Of a stretch of 64,000 nt of DNA, positions 6,723 through 58,437 are shown in pieces. Every line of letters begins with the position of its first letter. Position 1 is the first letter of the stretch. The translations under genes were made by a program, and so were the position numbers. The notes under the pieces are model-generated. The model had not been told where the DNA came from. It did no database searches and saw nothing but the letters and a program-made list of their open reading frames with translations. Source of the DNA: an uncultured Candidatus Saccharibacteria bacterium (GTDB taxonomy: Bacteria > Patescibacteriota > Minisyncoccia > Phycocordibacterales > Zambryskibacteraceae); NCBI GenBank assembly GCA_964355645.1, contig CAYHDI010000002.1, positions 92,522-156,521 on the forward strand, in the 5' to 3' direction.

Positions 6723-7340
6723 TTATTTTGTTCTATGCAAGAACGCATTCTTTAGGGTTTCAGGGTCGGCGTATTCGAGTTCGATGCCGGTTGAAAGCCC
6801 TCGACCGAGAACGGAAACGGTTATATTGGGGGTGAGTTTTTTGATTTGTTCCTTCAGATAATCCGCCGTGTTTTCTCCTTCGGCATTTGCATTCATTCCC
6901 AGAATAATTTCTTTGATGTTTGACTTTTGACTTTCTACTTTTGACTTTAAGTCTTTCAGCCTAATGCGTTTCTCAGGTTCCTTCTCAAGAATCGGTAGTG
7001 AACCACCGAGCACGAAGTAGTATCCCTTGTACCCCCCACTTTTCTCAATCGCTTCAAGGTCAATGTCTCGAGGAACAATCATGAGCTCAGATTTATCTCG
7101 AGTATCATCCGAGCAGATTGAGCACTTTTTTTGCACTTGTCCTGAGCTTGTCGAAGGAAAAAACCTCATGCACTCATCGCATTGGGTAATTTCTTTTTTC
7201 AAATTTTCTATAGCACCGACTAAATCTTTCGAAAATCCATTTTGTCTATGGAGCAAATAATAAACAAACCGTTTAGCTTGCCGTGGTCCAATTCCGGGGA
7301 AGTGAGAAAATATTTCTGAAAGTTTATCTATTGAGTTCAT
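6723..7340 (-). CDS. recR: Recombination protein RecR
   Basis: HhH motif FPGIGPRQAKR, a C4 zinc finger (CDEC...CSICSD), and a Toprim domain. Confidence 0.9.
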   Translation of the reverse strand: MNSIDKLSEIFSHFPGIGPRQAKRFVYYLLHRQNGFSKDLVGAIENLKKEITQCDECMRFFPSTSSGQVQKKCSICSDDTRDKSELMIVPRDIDLEAIEKSGGYKGYYFVLGGSLPILEKEPEKRIRLKDLKSKVESQKSNIKEIILGMNANAEGENTADYLKEQIKKLTPNITVSVLGRGLSTGIELEYADPETLKNAFLHRTK

Positions 7341-7385: not shown

Positions 7386-8795
7386 CTAAAAGTTTTTAAA
7401 CTCTTCCTCCGCCTTGCCATAGTTACTATAATCAATTTCAACGAAAGTATTGTGTCGTGTGTGATAATCGAGAGTGACGGTGCCGAGCGGACCATTTCGA
7501 TGCTTGGCAATGATTAATTCCTTGCGTTGAATTTCTTTTATCTTTCCGCTTTCATCTCGCAAATCATCTGTATCAGCATGGATAAACATCACGAGGTCGG
7601 CATCCTGTTCAATCGAGCCCGAATCACGAAGATCAGAAAGCTTTGGTTTGCCTCCGCGGGTTTCTACGGCTCTAGAGAGCTGTGAGAGGGCGATGACGGG
7701 TATATCGAGCTCACGAGCAAGGTGTTTGAGAGAACGAGAAATCTCTGTCACTTGTTGAACCAATGATTCAGAGTTCTTGGTGTTTGTGGGGGCCATGAGT
7801 TGAAGATAGTCCACAATCAAAAGTTTCAAGCCCTTTTCAATTTTGAGTTTCCTCGCTGCTGAACGCATTTTGAGTACGGTGTTTCCGGCTTGGTCATCAA
7901 TATATATTGGTGTGCGAGACAAATCATCGAGGGCATCGCGAATATTTTTGAAAGTATCATCTCTCCATGTGCCTGTTTGAGTACGAATGCCTTTCCTAAT
8001 GACCGAGGCGTCTATTTGAGATTGAGCGGAGACAATACGATCAACGAGTTGATCGGCACTCATTTCAAGAGAAAAGATTCCAACAGGGATTTGATACTGA
8101 CTCGCAGCTTTGCGGGCAATGTCCAAAGCAAGAGCCGTCTTTCCGACCGAAGGTCGAGCCGCGATAATGATGAGATCTGATTTTTGAAAACCTCCGAGAA
8201 TATCATCAAGTGATTTGAATCCTGTTGGTACTCCACGAAGCTCATGTTCAGGCGAGGACAGCTTTTCAAACCTCTCGTATGCATCCACCAGTAGAGGTTT
8301 GAGGTCTTTGAAATTTTGGGCCGATGAGAAGTGTTGAGTGATGTCGAAAACTTTTTTCTCTGCGTGATCGAGGATTTCTTCAAGCTCACCGGATTCATCG
8401 AAGCCGAGATGAGAAATGAATTCAGATGCGTTAATAAGTTCTCGCATCATAAACTTCTTCTCAACAATTTCGGCGTAATGCTTCACATTCGCTGAAGAGG
8501 GGACAATGGAAGTCAATTCGGTTAGAAATGTCGTCCCGCCAATTCGATCGAGAACTCCCTTCTCTTTTAATCTCGATGAGAGTGAGAGGATGTCGATAGG
8601 TTGATGTTTGCCGAAAATCTCAAGCATGGTCTCGAAGATTGTTCGGTGTTTTTCAAAATAAAAAGAATTCGCAGAGACAATATCCATCACTTCATAAATA
8701 CAATCCGGTCGAAGCATGACAGAACCGAGTAGGGCCATTTCAGCTTCAAGTGATTGGGGTGGAATTCTGAGTTTGGATTTGTCTATTTCGGGCAT
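7386..8795 (-). CDS. dnaB: Replicative DNA helicase DnaB
   Basis: Walker A ARPSVGKTALALDIA, a DnaB N-terminal domain, and H4 motifs. Confidence 0.9.
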   Translation of the reverse strand: MPEIDKSKLRIPPQSLEAEMALLGSVMLRPDCIYEVMDIVSANSFYFEKHRTIFETMLEIFGKHQPIDILSLSSRLKEKGVLDRIGGTTFLTELTSIVPSSANVKHYAEIVEKKFMMRELINASEFISHLGFDESGELEEILDHAEKKVFDITQHFSSAQNFKDLKPLLVDAYERFEKLSSPEHELRGVPTGFKSLDDILGGFQKSDLIIIAARPSVGKTALALDIARKAASQYQIPVGIFSLEMSADQLVDRIVSAQSQIDASVIRKGIRTQTGTWRDDTFKNIRDALDDLSRTPIYIDDQAGNTVLKMRSAARKLKIEKGLKLLIVDYLQLMAPTNTKNSESLVQQVTEISRSLKHLARELDIPVIALSQLSRAVETRGGKPKLSDLRDSGSIEQDADLVMFIHADTDDLRDESGKIKEIQRKELIIAKHRNGPLGTVTLDYHTRHNTFVEIDYSNYGKAEEEFKNF

Positions 8796-8870
8796 AAGCC
8801 TATGCTACCAGTCGGGAGGTTCTTCGCAAACTAGCAACAGAGTATAAATCGGTGTGTAAGGTGGGGATAC

Positions 8871-10301
8871 CTATTTTGAGGTTAAAACAGGTCCATTTTC
8901 AGTATCTTTTAGTGTGTAGCCTTTATCTTCTATTTGTTTTCTAAGTTCATCTGACTTAGAAAAGTCCTTGTTTTGGCGAGCTATTTCACGTTCATCCACA
9001 AGTGCTTGGACATTATCAGGTATATAAATTATCTTTTCTGGTTCATCAAGTCTAAGACCTAAAACTCTATCAAAATCAAGGAGAGTAAACCGTTTTGTAG
9101 CCACATCAACATTGCTATCTTTCAATAAATTCCAAACAACGGCCAGGGCTTCGGGCGTATTAAAATCATTTTCAATGGCTTCTTTGAATTCTTTTTTGAA
9201 TTCAATTGACACCTCACCCCAGCCCCTCTCCTTGTCAAGGAGAGGGGTCGACTCGTGGGCGACGAGCGAGGGTGAGGTGAATTCTTTTAATTTTTTATAT
9301 GCATTTTGCGAAGCCTGCAATCCTTCCCAAGTAAAGTTAGTTGGAGTTCGATAATGTGAGCCGAGCAGAAAATATCGATAGGCTAGGGGAGAGAAGCCTT
9401 TTTCTTCAAGAGTTTTAAGAGTAATGAAATTATTTTCTGATTTAGCCATTTTCGTATCAGACATATTCACAAATCCATTGTGTAACCAATAGTGGGCGAA
9501 TTTTCCACCACAAGCGTTTTCGGATTGAACGATTTCGTTGTTGTGATGAATGGGAGCGAGATCTATTCCTCCCGTATGAATATCAAACGTATTACCCAAA
9601 TATTTTGTACTCATGGCTGAACATTCAATGTGCCAACCGGGGAAGCCTTGTCCCCAAGGACTTGGATAACCGAGATTAGAATTAAATTTCCACAAGGCAA
9701 AATCTTTTGAATTTCTTTTTTCTGAATTCAAGCCAATTCTTGAGGTCGCCTCCTCTGATTCTCCAATCCCTCCCAACTTTCCATAGTTCTCAACTTTTGA
9801 AATATCAAAATAAATTCCATCAGTGGTTTTGTAAGTTAAATCTTTTGTCTCCAAGATTTTAATCATTTCAATATCTTCAACAATATGCTCCGAAGCCCTG
9901 GGCAGAACATCGGGCGTTTTAATATTTAATTTAGTGATATCTTCCTTGAATCTTTCAGTATAAAAATTAGTTAGCTCCTTCATGGAATCAAGAGAAATCT
10001 CCTTACCTTCGCGTTTCAAGCCTTTTATGATTTTGTCTTCTCCCTCGTCGTTATTTCCTCCGACTCCTATATCCGTAATGTTCATCACTTGCTTCACTTT
10101 ATAGTTCTCATATTCAAATACTCGACGGATTATATCCGCTGTGAAGAATGCCCGAAGATTTCCGATGTGCACAAAATCATAAACCGTGGGCCCGCAATGA
10201 TACATACTCACTTCGCCATCTTTAATAGGCTTAAATTCTTCAATCCTATTTCCAAGAGTGTTGTGAAGCCTAATCATTTTCTGGCCATGAATCCTATCCA
10301 A
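8871..10301 (-). CDS. cysS: Cysteine--tRNA ligase. Likely start at MIRLHNTL, near 10277
   Basis: HIGH region YHCGPTVYDFVHIGNLR and KMSKS-like KMAKSENN. Confidence 0.9.
   Translation of the reverse strand: MDRIHGQKMIRLHNTLGNRIEEFKPIKDGEVSMYHCGPTVYDFVHIGNLRAFFTADIIRRVFEYENYKVKQVMNITDIGVGGNNDEGEDKIIKGLKREGKEISLDSMKELTNFYTERFKEDITKLNIKTPDVLPRASEHIVEDIEMIKILETKDLTYKTTDGIYFDISKVENYGKLGGIGESEEATSRIGLNSEKRNSKDFALWKFNSNLGYPSPWGQGFPGWHIECSAMSTKYLGNTFDIHTGGIDLAPIHHNNEIVQSENACGGKFAHYWLHNGFVNMSDTKMAKSENNFITLKTLEEKGFSPLAYRYFLLGSHYRTPTNFTWEGLQASQNAYKKLKEFTSPSLVAHESTPLLDKERGWGEVSIEFKKEFKEAIENDFNTPEALAVVWNLLKDSNVDVATKRFTLLDFDRVLGLRLDEPEKIIYIPDNVQALVDEREIARQNKDFSKSDELRKQIEDKGYTLKDTENGPVLTSK
9210..9279. repeat. 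70-bp GC-rich MITE-like palindromic element inserted in-frame within cysS
   Basis: 10-bp terminal inverted repeats cacctcaccc/gggtgaggtg enclose two internal hairpins (cccctctcc...ggagagggg and ctcgt...acgag). The element is GC-rich inside an AT-rich CDS. It encodes roughly 10 extra residues compared with the E. coli CysRS linker. Confidence 0.5.
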
Positions 10302-11059: not shown

Positions 11060-12347
11060 AAGTATACATTCATTATTTCTGTTGACCAAGGTGGTCGGGG
11101 ATGCGATAATTGAAAGAATGGAATTTCTTAAAAAGCACGCTTCATTGACTGTTCTCGGTATTATTGTTCTCTCCGTTGTATATTTTCTGGGTTTTAATTC
11201 TGGCAAACAAAGTGCCTACACCTCACTTGCAACGATTGCCACTCTTGAGAACAAAACGACAGGAGAACCTTCCACGGTTGATTTTGGAATATTTTGGAAA
11301 ACATGGAATCTTTTGAATGAAAAATATGTGGCCACAGCGACTTCTTCGAAACCGATAAGTGATCAAGACAAAGTTTATGGTGCTATCCAAGGCCTCGTAT
11401 CTTCTTTCGGCGATCCTTACACCGTTTTCTTTCCTCCTGTTGAATCGAAAACGTTTGCTTCAGAAGTTCGAGGAAATTTCGAAGGGGTGGGCATGGAAGT
11501 TGGGCCCAAAGATGGAGCCCTGACGGTCATCGCCCCTCTTAAGGATAGTCCCGCTGAGAAAGCTGGAATTCTTCCGGGCGATAAAATAATTAAAATTGAT
11601 GACAAAAGTGCTTCAAATTTGTCTACTGAAAGCGCCGTACAATTAATCCGAGGTCCAAGCGGTACGGTGGTCACTCTGACGATAATTCGTTCGACCAAAA
11701 AACAAGCTTTTGATATAAAGATTACGCGCGGGATAATCAACATTCCAACCATTGCGACCAAGAATTTGGGGAACGGTATTTTCAAAATTGATTTATATAG
11801 TTTTACTGCCGATTCACCCAATCTTTTCAGGGGGGCGTTGCGTGAATTTGTTCAATCGGGTAATAATAAATTGATTCTCGATTTGCGAGGGAATCCCGGA
11901 GGATATCTTGAAGCGGCGATAGACATGGCCAGCTGGTTCCTGCCGAGTGGCAAGGTGGTAGTCAAGGAGAGCTTCGGTCCAAACAAGGATGAAACTATTT
12001 ATCGAAGCAAGGGCTACGATGTGTTTAACAATAATTTAAAATTTGCGATTTTGGTTGATAATGGTTCAGCCTCGGCTGCAGAAATTCTCGCCGGGGCTCT
12101 TTCGGAGCAAGGTAAGGCTTTCCTCGTTGGTCAAACAACATTCGGCAAGGGTTCGGTTCAAGAATTGGTTGATATCACATCTGATACCTCTCTCAAGGTT
12201 ACTATTGCTCGTTGGCTCACGCCGAATGGACTTTCAATTTCTAAACAAGGCATTACTCCGCAATACGTTGTTCAGAGAACTGAAGCGGATATGCTCGCGG
12301 GCAAAGACCCTCAACTCGACAAGGCGATTGAGATTTTGAATCAATGA
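11037..12347 (+). CDS. ctpA: Carboxyl-terminal processing protease (S41, CtpA-like). Likely start MEFLKK, near 11118
   Basis: PDZ domain (GDKIIKIDD), LRGNPGG, and catalytic TFGKGSVQ. Confidence 0.8.
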
Positions 12348-12808
12348 AAGTTATTTTACTCAAAGATATCAAAGGGGTGGGAAAAAAGTTCGAAGAGAAA
12401 AATGTCTCGGATGGCTATGCGATGAATTTGCTTATTCCGAAGAAACTTGCCGTGCCCGCTTCGAATGCAGGGCAAGTGAAAACTTTGATTGAGAACAAAT
12501 TGGCCGAGGAAGCTTCGGCTCGAAAACATCTCGAAGAAAATATTCAGAAAATCAGTGGGACAGAAATCAAACTTAGTTTGAAGGCCAATGAAAAGAATCA
12601 CCTGTTCGCATCGTTGAATGCACAGAAACTTTCTGAGATTTTAAAGAAAGAAAGAAATATTGAAATTAGTCCCAATTTAATTGAACTCGAAACTCCTATC
12701 AAAGAAATCGGTACCTTCGAAATTCCAGTCAGGGTAGGGGACCCCGCAGGGCAAACCAACAGGGCAGGTAAGCAAGCAAAGTTTACGCTTGTGGTAGAAC
12801 CCAAGTAG
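12344..12808 (+). CDS. rplI: 50S ribosomal protein L9
   Basis: [32 protein letters not shown]. Confidence 0.85.
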
Positions 12809-29233: not shown

Positions 29234-31088
29234 CCTTTACGGTTTCATCTTTAGGGGTCTCATTGCTGACTTGTTCTGAGCCTGACGAAGGATTTTTTTG
29301 CAAGTATTCACCGATTTTAGAAAGTTCAGCAGAAAGTGCTTCGGTCGCTGTCTTAATCGATTCGATTGTACCTGATTCGCGCTCTTTTTTAAGAGCGTTG
29401 ATTTTCTCATTCACTGCATTTTTAATATCATCGGGAATGTTTGCATTATCCTTCAATGATTTCTCTGCAGTATAAATCAATTGCTCAGACATATTCTTCG
29501 CATCAACCAAATCTTTTTTCTTCGCATCATCGCTGGCATTAGCCTCGGCTTCCTTCTGCATACGCGCTATTTCATCTTTCGAAAGGCCCGAAGAAGCTTC
29601 AATACGAATGGATTGTTCCTTGCCCGTGGTTTTATCCTTGGCCTTCACAGAGAGGATTCCATTCGCATCAACGTCGAATGACACCTCGACCTGAGGCATA
29701 CCACGAGAGGCTGGAGGAATTCCATCAAGAATGAATCTGCCGAGCGATTTGTTGTCTCCGGCCATAGTCCTATCACCTTGAACAATATGTATTTCAACAG
29801 AAGTTTGATTGTCAGCGGCAGTTGAAAATACTTGAGATTTAGATGAAGGAATAGTTGTATTTCTTTCGATTAATTTTGTGGCCACACCTCCCATTGTTTC
29901 AATTCCGAGAGATAGAGGGATAACATCAAGGAGCAAGATGTCTTTCACATCACCCGAAAGGATTCCTCCTTGGATAGCTGCACCGAGAGCGACCACTTCA
30001 TCAGGATTAATGGATTTGTTCGGTTCTCGGTTAAAGAATTTCTTCACTGCATCCGAGATAGCCGGCATGCGAGTTTGTCCACCAACGAGAATCACTTCGT
30101 TCAAATCAGCTATCTTGAACGGAGAAGCCTCCATAGCTCGCTTGGTAATAGTCATCGCTCGGTCAATGAATTCTGCTGTTAGTTCTTCGAGTTTGGCTCG
30201 GCTCATTTTTAATAGCAAATGCTTCGGTCCAGAGGCATCAGAAGTAATGAATGGAATATTTATTTCTGTTTCTGTGGCTGTTGAAAGTTCAATCTTGGCC
30301 TTCTCTGCGGCTTCATCCAAACGTTGAAGAGCTAGAGCATCATTACGGACATCAATACCCGATTCCTTCTTATATTCATCAGCAATCCAATTGATAACCT
30401 TTTGGTCAATATCTTTACCGCCGAGGTGTGAATCTCCGTCAGTCGATTTCACTTCGACCACATCATCACCCACTTCCAGAATGGAAATATCAAATGTTCC
30501 TCCACCAAAATCGAAAACAGCAATCTTCTCGTTTTTCTTTTTATCAAATCCGTAAGCCAAAGCAGCAGCCGTCGGTTCATTGATAATTCGCTTCACATCA
30601 AGTCCGGCAATCTGACCGGCATCCTTTGTGGCTTTGCGTTGCGCATCATTAAAATAAGCAGGGACAGTGATGACCGCTTCAGTAATTTTTTCTCCCAATT
30701 TAGTTTCTGCGTCGGCCTTCAATTTCTGAAGAATCATCGCCGAGATTTCTTCTGGTCTTTGATCCTTGTCTCCAAGATGAACGAGTACCCCGCCATCTGT
30801 TGAACTTTTCACTTCGAATGGAACGGTAGCCTTGTCTTTCTGAACAGCCGGGTCAGAGAAAATATGGCCGATAAATCGCTTGATTCCGAAAACAGTGTTC
30901 TTCGGATTGGTGACCGCCTGTCTGCGTGCGAGAAGTCCAACCATACGCTCACCGGTTTTAGAAATAGCCACAATAGAAGGAGTGGTTCGTGCTCCCTCGG
31001 AGTTTTCAATTATTTTCGGGGCACCTACCTCCATGATGGCTATCGCCGAGTTTGTTGTTCCTAAATCTATTCCAATGATTTTTGCCAT
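29172..31088 (-). CDS. dnaK: Chaperone DnaK (Hsp70)
   Basis: [18 protein letters not shown] and full-length Hsp70. Confidence 0.95.
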
Positions 31089-58233: not shown

Positions 58234-58437
58234 TTAATTGAGCATCCAAGCCGGTGGATTGAGCGCCGGCTTGACCAGCATCGGGTACCAATCTTTCACC
58301 GAACCGATCGTAAAATAGCTTCCCAATCCTCCTGCCAACTGCGGAATAATAAGCGAGATGATAAGTTTGAATACCTGTCCTGAGCGTAGTCGAAGGGTGT
58401 TGACTCGTACTGAGCTTGTCGAAGTGTTGATTTTCAT
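58234..58437 (-). pseudogene. N-terminal fragment of a TspO/MBR family protein (truncated), in a GC-rich patch
   Basis: LAGGLGSYFTIGSVKDWYPMLVKPALNPPAWM matches the TspO N-terminal motif (GSLFT...WY..L.KP.f.PP.W). It ends after about 65 aa at the ATPase start. Confidence 0.45.

Follow-up and report, generated by a model that had tools for sequence, protein, structure and literature searches.

Why does the cysteine–tRNA ligase gene (cysS) of an uncultured bacterium of the candidate phyla radiation (CPR) carry a short, GC-rich palindrome that is translated with the rest of the enzyme? We addressed this question in a stretch of 64,000 nucleotides (nt) from contig CAYHDI010000002.1, hereafter called the window, where a 70-nt element lies within cysS. 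The answer that we favor, with a probability of about 0.68, is that this 70-mer is a gene-less member, similar to transposable elements of the miniature inverted-repeat kind (MITEs), of the BoxC/PIT/triplex motif (TM) class of repeats, and that members of this class make up the structured ends of small units encoding a DUF559 (YcjD/Vsr-like, PD-(D/E)xK) endonuclease in Parcubacteria.

The link with DUF559 was studied in two sets of loci. In the set selected by the repeat itself, open reading frames (ORFs) of DUF559 were found with tblastn and hidden Markov models in 12 loci among the matches listed, and 11 of the 12 have a repeat unit within about 220 nt. The usual layout is an inverted unit 80 to 150 nt upstream of the gene and a direct unit 25 to 90 nt downstream. 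Eight of these ORFs were checked with Pfam and all were assigned to DUF559 (E = 1e-30 to 1e-37). For an unbiased sample, we searched proteins with the DUF559 of L211 (a low-GC contig) and inspected the DNA of seven Parcubacteria matches, spread over six gene neighborhoods. All seven genes are preceded by (CA)CCTCACCCC and, after a hairpin that may be lacking, by a GC palindrome ending about 3 to 35 nt before the start codon. The mirror arrangement (palindrome, hairpin, GGGGTGAGG(TG)) follows downstream in five of the seven, and in L246, the sixth, a simple TM unit, made of the palindrome and GGGGTGAGG with no small hairpin, lies beyond one more ORF. The full unit comprises a left end (CACCTCACCCC, then 0 to 35 nt often holding a hairpin, then the GC palindrome, hp2), a DUF559 ORF of about 115 amino acids, and a right end made of hp2', hp1', and GGGGTGAGGTG.

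The element in cysS can be aligned with both ends of such a unit. Its left repeat, AG linker, and first hp2 arm (window 9210-9231) are identical at 22/22 nt to the sequence directly upstream of the DUF559 gene of L255 (CACCTCACCCCAGCCCCTCTCC), and the right end of the L255 unit has the module order of window positions 9223-9279. Because of these two correspondences, the 70-mer is best described as the left and right ends of a DUF559 unit fused at their shared palindrome, with the gene missing. On the plus strand its modules follow in the order left end, shared palindrome, small hairpin (hp1), and right end, as in L255, L248, L250, and L252, and its orientation is that of the DUF559 units, antisense to cysS. 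Forms with left and right ends and no gene are also found in other phyla, for example in L034 and L097.

The earlier note, made from the letters of the DNA, had described a MITE-like palindromic element of 70 bp with 10-bp terminal inverted repeats and two internal hairpins, GC rich inside an AT-rich essential gene. Sequence and folding agree with this description (Table 1). The GC content of the 70-mer is 67%, compared with 40.6% for the whole window, and the 10-nt ends (CACCTCACCC and GGGTGAGGTG) are complementary without mismatch and have no other exact occurrence in the 64 kb. Either strand folds into a three-way junction with an outer stem and two hairpins. The fold, which the note had proposed to check, is stable, with energies of −46.6 kcal/mol for RNA (z = −6.5) and of −28.9 and −28.7 kcal/mol for the two DNA strands (z = −7.9 and −7.1). 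The palindrome CCCCTCTCCTTGTCAAGGAGAGGGG occurs once in the window against 0 expected from 100 shuffles, and its arms are one anti-Shine-Dalgarno-like (CTCCTT) and one Shine-Dalgarno-like (AAGGAG). The sequence of hp1 differs among family members, and the hairpin is usually retained; 15 of the 24 distinct members fold better than their shuffled versions. The MITE-like character fits an element with inverted ends, without a gene, dispersed, and sharing its ends with DUF559 units; no target-site duplication is present.

Table 1. Features of cysS and its element (window coordinates)
Feature	Position	Strand	Remark
cysS (cysteine--tRNA ligase), ORF	8871-10301	-	likely true start 10277
24 codons, T342-S365 of the 476-aa ORF, in place of the native CysRS linker: TSPSLVAHESTPLLDKERGWGEVS	9207-9278	-	
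Whole 70-nt element	9210-9279	+	CACCTCACCCCAGCCCCTCTCCTTGTCAAGGAGAGGGGTCGACTCGTGGGCGACGAGCGAGGGTGAGGTG
Left terminal inverted repeat CACCTCACCCC	9210-9220	+	
Intrastrand-triplex motif CCCCTCTCC / TTGACAA / GGAGAGGGG / CT / GGGGTGAGG	9212-9247	- (cysS sense strand)	read from sequence
hp2, perfect palindrome CCCCTCTCCTTG-T-CAAGGAGAGGGG, conserved family core	9223-9247	either	
hp1, small hairpin TCGA-CTCGT-GGGCG-ACGAG-CGA	9248-9269	either	
Right terminal inverted repeat GGGTGAGGTG	9270-9279	+	same terminus closes the right-hand repeat of DUF559 units

The repeat class itself is known: BoxC, PIT, and TM(ECO) are one repeat, written as CCCTCNCCC N3-6 GGGNGAGGG N3 GGGNGAGGG, and in vitro an isolated TM strand adopts an intrastrand triplex of the purine motif (Holder et al. 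2015, PMC4666352). In the cysS element, the third block (GGGGTGAGG) mirrors the purine block, which is predicted from sequence to give 9/9 allowed purine-motif triads (G·GC, A·AT, T·AT), where the three-block class has at least 8. The exact TM(ECO) pattern is not matched, the register being one base off and the loops 7 and 2 nt long. With the class as described before (Bachellier 1990s; Hoyne and Maher 2000; Holder 2015) the element shares the succession of C-rich arm, loop, complementary G-rich arm, short loop, and mirror G-rich block, the near-identical words (CCCTCTCCC/GGGAGAGGG/GGGTGAGGG), the dispersal, and the occurrence in inverted pairs. It differs in its shifted register (CCCCTCTCC/GGAGAGGGG/GGGGTGAGG), in its loops (3 to 6 and 3 nt in Escherichia coli), in an extra 5' complement of the third block (CCTCACCCC) and a second small hairpin, and in being coding and in a CPR host, whereas the 23 TM copies of E. 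coli K-12 are all intergenic (23/23, PMC4666352). An associated or mobilizing gene had not been reported for the class. We therefore classify it, from these features, as a register-shifted variant of the BoxC/PIT/TM class. In a 49-nt subfamily the right end (GGGGAGAGG) mirrors the purine arm exactly and does so at the expense of Watson-Crick pairing with the left end, suggesting that mirror symmetry itself matters.

The motif GGAGAGGGG-N(1-8)-GGGGTGAGGTG was found at at least 120 loci in species-representative genomes, and the matches listed belong to Bacteroidota, Chloroflexota, Planctomycetota, Gemmatimonadota, Cyanobacteria, Armatimonadota, Alphaproteobacteria, and Patescibacteria. The hp2 core was found at at least 120 loci in a metagenome scan, and there were no matches to it in viral contigs. 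The search for further copies suggested by the earlier note was thus productive outside the window, with copies in other genes and between genes. The metagenome matches listed fall into two groups. The first consists of 41-nt units made of a hairpin and a tail, on contigs of about 50% GC and almost all intergenic. The second consists of full elements with both ends, mostly on contigs of 29 to 44% GC. Among the matches listed, 16 of 46 copies (35%) in the low-GC, CPR-like set lie inside long ORFs, compared with 73% of random positions in the same loci, and 7 of 80 in the high-GC set, compared with 66% of random positions. Since both values fall below the random expectation, coding copies are selected against, yet the low-GC set tolerates them about four times better.

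The ORFs that host such copies, judged by eye from their translations, look like PurL, PurD, PriA, Dus, UvrD/PcrA, a THUMP methyltransferase, a type II restriction-modification enzyme, a cyanobacterial nonribosomal peptide synthetase, and two cysteine desulfurases (nifS-like). In the latter two (NifS/IscS-like ORFs of L199 and L206), different element subtypes in different frames lie about 3 residues apart, just before HTDA(V/S)Q, and look like independent hits in one permissive loop. In the 32 full metagenome elements, an A precedes the left end in 30/32 and a T follows the right end in 30/31, extending the inverted repeat, and the next bases outward are mostly C and G, giving CA...TG termini. 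Full elements inside long ORFs are oriented to the host gene as the cysS copy in 12/13 cases; orientation is weakly defined for those without hp1.

Whole units can also be found inside genes. In Bacteroidota, a complete unit (repeat, DUF559, repeat) lies in frame in leuS, between NWIG[KR]S and VFTTRPDT, in two families. Four stand-alone DUF559 proteins carry the JGI name "leucyl-tRNA synthetase," a misnaming plausibly due to such in-frame copies. The leuS units occupy about 6620-7110 of L007 and about 1933-2250 of L078 (minus strand), the same site in Cytophagales and Chitinophagaceae genomes, and the same in-frame arrangement is seen in L013 (a yeeA-like restriction-modification gene) and in L098. 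In E. coli K-12 (L245, NC_000913.3, 1351205-1351830), TM number 9 lies 167 nt 3' of ycjD, which encodes a DUF559 protein, in the same orientation. Upstream of ycjD, a palindrome CACCTCATTCTGACAA...TTGTCAGAATGAGGTG overlaps the GTG start codon, and its outer words are CACCTCA/TGAGGTG, as in the element ends. Of 5426 complete E. coli genomes, only 3378 (62%) have an intact ycjD region.

The position of hp2 next to the DUF559 gene may be relevant to its expression. In L255 and L250 the 3' arm of hp2 (AAGGAGAGGGG) is at Shine-Dalgarno distance from the DUF559 start, and in L246 the right terminus GGGGTGAGG takes this place. The hairpin may therefore mask the ribosome-binding site of DUF559, and the need for it could explain why these words are conserved across phyla. 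In L246 (2913-2994) and L211 (14-95), upstream of DUF559, the left end is separated from hp2 by 35 AT-rich nt that hold TTTTAGTATAATG, which is −10-like; the promoter of the unit may lie in this variable module.

The host gene encodes a cysteine–tRNA ligase. Its best homologues are from Parcubacteria, Paceibacteria, and Zambryskibacteria (CPR/Patescibacteria), solved CysRS structures in the PDB match its product down to E = 1.7e-95, and the catalytic motifs HIGN and KMAKS are intact. The called ORF opens with TTG at 10301; most aligned homologues begin at MIRLHN, and the start is probably at the corresponding position, 10277. The reading frame is unbroken through the element, whose peptide (TSPSLVAHESTPLLDKERGWGEVS) directly precedes the ENDFNTP motif, as noted before for the frame and for DFNTP, and is flanked by the conserved AYKKLKEF and EFKKEFKEAIENDFNTPEA segments. 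In the AlphaFold2 model (mean pLDDT, the per-residue confidence score, 81.6), the loop of residues 346-360 scores below 50 and lies between two confidently predicted helices (325-342 and 366-377). The model suggests that the 24-residue loop is probably disordered, lies on the surface at the start of the helical (DALR_2) domain, and is tolerated by CysRS. Searches at the protein level added little: an exact look-up of the CysS protein of the window gave no record, a word-indexed search with a 74-residue segment across the insert gave no candidates and is uninformative, and an exhaustive HMMER search with a 33-residue peptide gave 3 matches, all repetitive proteins matched by chance.

Most relatives of this CysS do not have the element. 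Its peptide was found in 2 of the 120 best homologues, P0001 (86% identical) and P0068 (60% identical). The distance between the flanking anchors is 39 in these two, the longest of all, and 24 to 37 in the other 118, whose linkers are shorter and unrelated in sequence; relatives without the element do not share the linker of the window. In the nearest of them (P0002, 79% identical) the linker (MDLSFASVGQPIS) has 13 residues and is unrelated. The element-bearing proteins have 24 residues where the others have 10 to 20, and the native linker is missing, which argues for a replacement of the linker by the element rather than a simple insertion. The earlier estimate that about 10 residues were added is close to the net gain of about 11 over the nearest element-free orthologue, but the element gives 23 to 24 codons and the native linker of 11 to 13 residues was replaced, not extended.

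The gene order corA-cysS-dnaB-recR is common to the window, L001, L002, and L003, and neighboring proteins support the relationship ((window, L001), L003), L002; for DnaB, the identities to the window are 98.7%, 96.2%, and 83.6%. The element is present in cysS of the window, L001, and L002, three independent assemblies, and is absent from L003. Between L001 and L002, the elements are identical at 67/69 positions and the cysS genes at 66% of nucleotides. Identity of the 30-nt flanks is 80% and 87% between L001 and L002, compared with 63% and 67% between L002 and L003. The same site is filled in these two divergent genes, and identity is raised around it. Vertical descent followed by loss is unlikely, because the ancestral-looking linkers could not be recreated, and a single origin with lateral copying of a short patch would be the simplest reading of these three alleles. 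L002 has a second copy, in frame and following codon 11 of the gene for a small membrane protein, at a site empty in the window, L001, and L003. The repetition of AAAAGAATTCA around the cysS element was considered as a target-site duplication and rejected, since the repeat is native: the KLKEF and YKKEF codons are also present in the empty allele of L003.

The changes within the element point to constraint on the nucleic acid. The window and L001 differ at 5 positions of the element, and 4 of these 5 substitutions change an amino acid. Four of the five differences also form two compensatory pairs in hp1 (CTCGT/ACGAG compared with CTTGC/GCAAG), and the same two pairs, changed on both sides, distinguish the window from L001/L002. 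We conclude that the constraint acts on the nucleic acid rather than on the protein, although the statistics are weak with three sequences, 50 of 500 shuffles being equally good. Template switching in quasi-palindromes can also yield compensatory changes without selection.

How such an element would move can be proposed from its relatives. In a survey of the PD-(D/E)xK superfamily, one clade unites Vsr, DUF559, and the homing endonuclease I-Bth0305I (PMC3424549). Vsr-like (EDxHD) homing endonucleases (I-Bth0305I, PMC3239194) thus share a fold clade with DUF559, and they invade conserved housekeeping genes at fixed sites; their copying with co-conversion of flanks would explain a replaced linker and similar flanking sequences. 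They differ from the present case, in which there is no intron or intein, the insert stays in the mRNA and the protein, and the cysS copy has no nuclease gene. We propose that DUF559 would nick or cleave the structured ends or the target sites and that repair would copy the element in, the mini-elements moving in trans. Such a mechanism would account for the missing target-site duplication and the replaced linker, and also for the site shared by divergent cysS genes and the raised identity of the flanks. The common ancestor of the window and L001 lineages would have acquired the cysS element, and the patch in the much more distant L002 would most likely have been brought in laterally, the element and short flanks being copied by gene conversion or by a homing-like process. 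The cysS copy would be a selfish or neutral passenger that is tolerated, its pairing kept by structure-dependent processes.

Several observations weigh against this interpretation. No DUF559 protein is, to our knowledge, shown to move DNA, and we know of no transposase that consists of a PD-(D/E)xK nuclease alone. Neither a DUF559 gene nor further copies or variants of the element were found in the 64-kb window, and the DUF559 gene of L002 has no unit within 5 kb. The element ends of the window, L001, and L002, and those of 32 other full copies, are not abutted by any direct repeat that would indicate a target-site duplication, and a clean junction between filled and empty sites is absent at cysS, the native linker being gone. 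Lateral transfer is deduced from three alleles, and the compensatory changes could reflect a function for the host or a by-product of template switching. Many E. coli genomes keep TMs without an intact ycjD region. Finally, no association of E. coli TMs with mobile elements was found by Holder et al. (PMC4666352).

The persistence of TMs in E. coli genomes without an intact ycjD region would be expected if the link were reversed, that is, if DUF559 were a host nuclease that processes or represses structured sequences, its gene accumulated them, and the repeats spread by replication slippage or illegitimate recombination. TM repeats are linked with local genome instability (PMC4666352), and hp2 beside the start codon could be a mere regulatory hairpin over the ribosome-binding site. 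We consider this reversal unlikely, given inverted ends that bracket the gene precisely in six neighborhoods and several phyla, whole units in frame inside leuS and other genes, gene-less forms with left and right ends, and an anatomy of mobile unit and miniature derivatives. A little less probable still is co-option by the host, in which the hairpins or a DNA triplex in cysS would modulate translation, mRNA decay, or replication or transcription through the gene. The pairing preserved by two double substitutions while the peptide changes, a folding energy extreme for the genome, the pairing of anti-Shine-Dalgarno-like and Shine-Dalgarno-like arms in hp2, and the block of DNA polymerase by PIT elements in vitro (PMC4666352) are all compatible with such a role. 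However, purine-motif triplexes do not form in RNA, and E. coli copies showed no promoter or terminator activity and no in vivo effect (PMC4666352). Moreover, 118 of the 120 homologues do without the element, the same module occurs in many unrelated genes and between genes, and an Rfam scan of positions 8700-9800 (E up to 10) gave only weak matches, none of them credible (for example STnc220 at 25.5 bits, for a gathering threshold of 60). Compensatory changes, as said above, can also arise by template switching.

Two further explanations have very little in their favor compared with a gene-less relative of DUF559 units. The presence of a Y1_Tnp gene directly downstream of cysS in L002, and a structured palindrome like those of REPINs, could indicate a REP/REPIN moved by a RAYT-type Y1 transposase. 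REP/REPIN and RAYT systems (Nunvar 2010; Bertels and Rainey 2011; Ton-Hoang 2012) also have a small gene between inverted structured repeats and many gene-less singlets or doublets elsewhere. Here, however, the gene is DUF559 where those systems have a Y1 HUH transposase, the hairpins adjoin neither a GTAG nor a CGTC tag, the sequence is conserved among phyla rather than species specific, and the window and L001 have the element with no Y1 gene at that position. We rejected this origin, since the Y1_Tnp gene of L002 has a perfect, AT-rich palindrome of its own (AATTGAGCAAGGTTWAACCTTGCTCAATT) on its flanks, unrelated to the element. Equally improbable is a lineage-specific adaptive peptide of CysRS, or an assembly artefact. 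The frame is kept and the site adjoins the helical domain contacting tRNA, as an adaptive peptide would have it, but nucleotide pairing is kept where 4/5 of the L001 substitutions are non-synonymous, the stretch has the low pLDDT given above, and the same DNA occurs elsewhere in other reading frames. An artefact is at odds with the three independent assemblies. The Y1_Tnp gene of L002 (11417-12155) encodes a 223-residue IS200/RAYT-like protein between cysS and dnaB, with the perfect 29-nt palindrome on both sides, and represents a separate REP/RAYT-like system absent from the window.

Among known systems, bacterial MITEs such as Correia elements and ERIC are also short, gene-less, folded, and dispersed, with terminal inverted repeats and with ends shared with a longer gene-carrying unit, here that of DUF559. 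The cysS element has the perfect inverted 10-nt ends, the small size (70 nt), and no ORF of its own. It differs from them in lacking a target-site duplication, in having a putative parent that encodes a PD-(D/E)xK nuclease and not a DDE transposase, and in a mobility that is putative. Both cysS and the membrane-protein gene of L002 have filled as well as empty alleles, the cysS junction being a replacement. The earlier note had also seen a resemblance to Rickettsia palindromic elements (RPEs), reportedly described by Ogata and colleagues in 2000 as in-frame palindromic repeats of Rickettsia. The resemblance stands for behavior, as both are palindromic repeats in frame in housekeeping genes that are translated into an extra surface peptide; the family is that of the BoxC/PIT/triplex motif. 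RPEs are about 100 to 150 bp long and belong to an alphaproteobacterial genus, and we know of no gene that accompanies them and of no similarity between their sequences and that of the element. The element, with 70 nt and a Parcubacteria host, differs from them in size and host.

A wider proposal, which we hold tentatively and at somewhat less than even odds, is that BoxC/PIT repeats are the structured ends and miniatures of a cross-phylum selfish element whose sole gene is DUF559. Such an element would invade genes in frame (cysS, leuS, and purL-, purD-, priA-, and nifS-like ORFs), spread between lineages by homing-like conversion, and in CPR bacteria live largely in surface loops of essential proteins. 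Our search of the open-access literature found no link of BoxC/PIT repeats to DUF559, ycjD, or CPR coding regions. In the literature searched, the presence in CPR, the in-frame residence in essential-looking ORFs, the anatomy of left end, right end, and hp1, and the association with DUF559 are apparently new. An enigmatic and widespread repeat class would thereby be tied to a candidate enzyme, and the origin of BoxC/PIT, a puzzle for about 30 years, would become testable in E. coli through ycjD. DUF559, a large family of unknown function, would gain a concrete hypothesis. CPR bacteria, which are almost without intergenic space, can hold such repeats as translated loops in essential genes, and this affects gene calling, protein-family alignments, and how "lineage-specific insertions" are read in proteins derived from metagenomes.

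In recR (window 7125-7157, ORF 6723-7340, minus strand), another family of GC-rich motifs (GTCCTGAGCTTGTCGAAGG) was observed in frame in the zinc-finger loop. This patch of 33 nt takes the place of 27 nt conserved in L001, L003, and L002, changing FF-AKNGHANKL-C to FF-PSTSSGQVQKK-C. It is present only in the lineage of the window, hence probably recent, and is a patch replacement of the same kind as in cysS. Two tandem GTCCTGAGC..GTCGAAGG motifs of the recR family lie at 58377-58424 of the window, at the 5' end of a 67-residue ORF (58234-58437, minus strand), where they read TSTSSVRVNTLRLRSGQV, and a diverged copy of the motif is found at about 29271-29292. In L001, a 334-residue ORF without a Pfam match (11413-12417) lies between cysS and dnaB, at a place where the gap in the window is about 75 bp.

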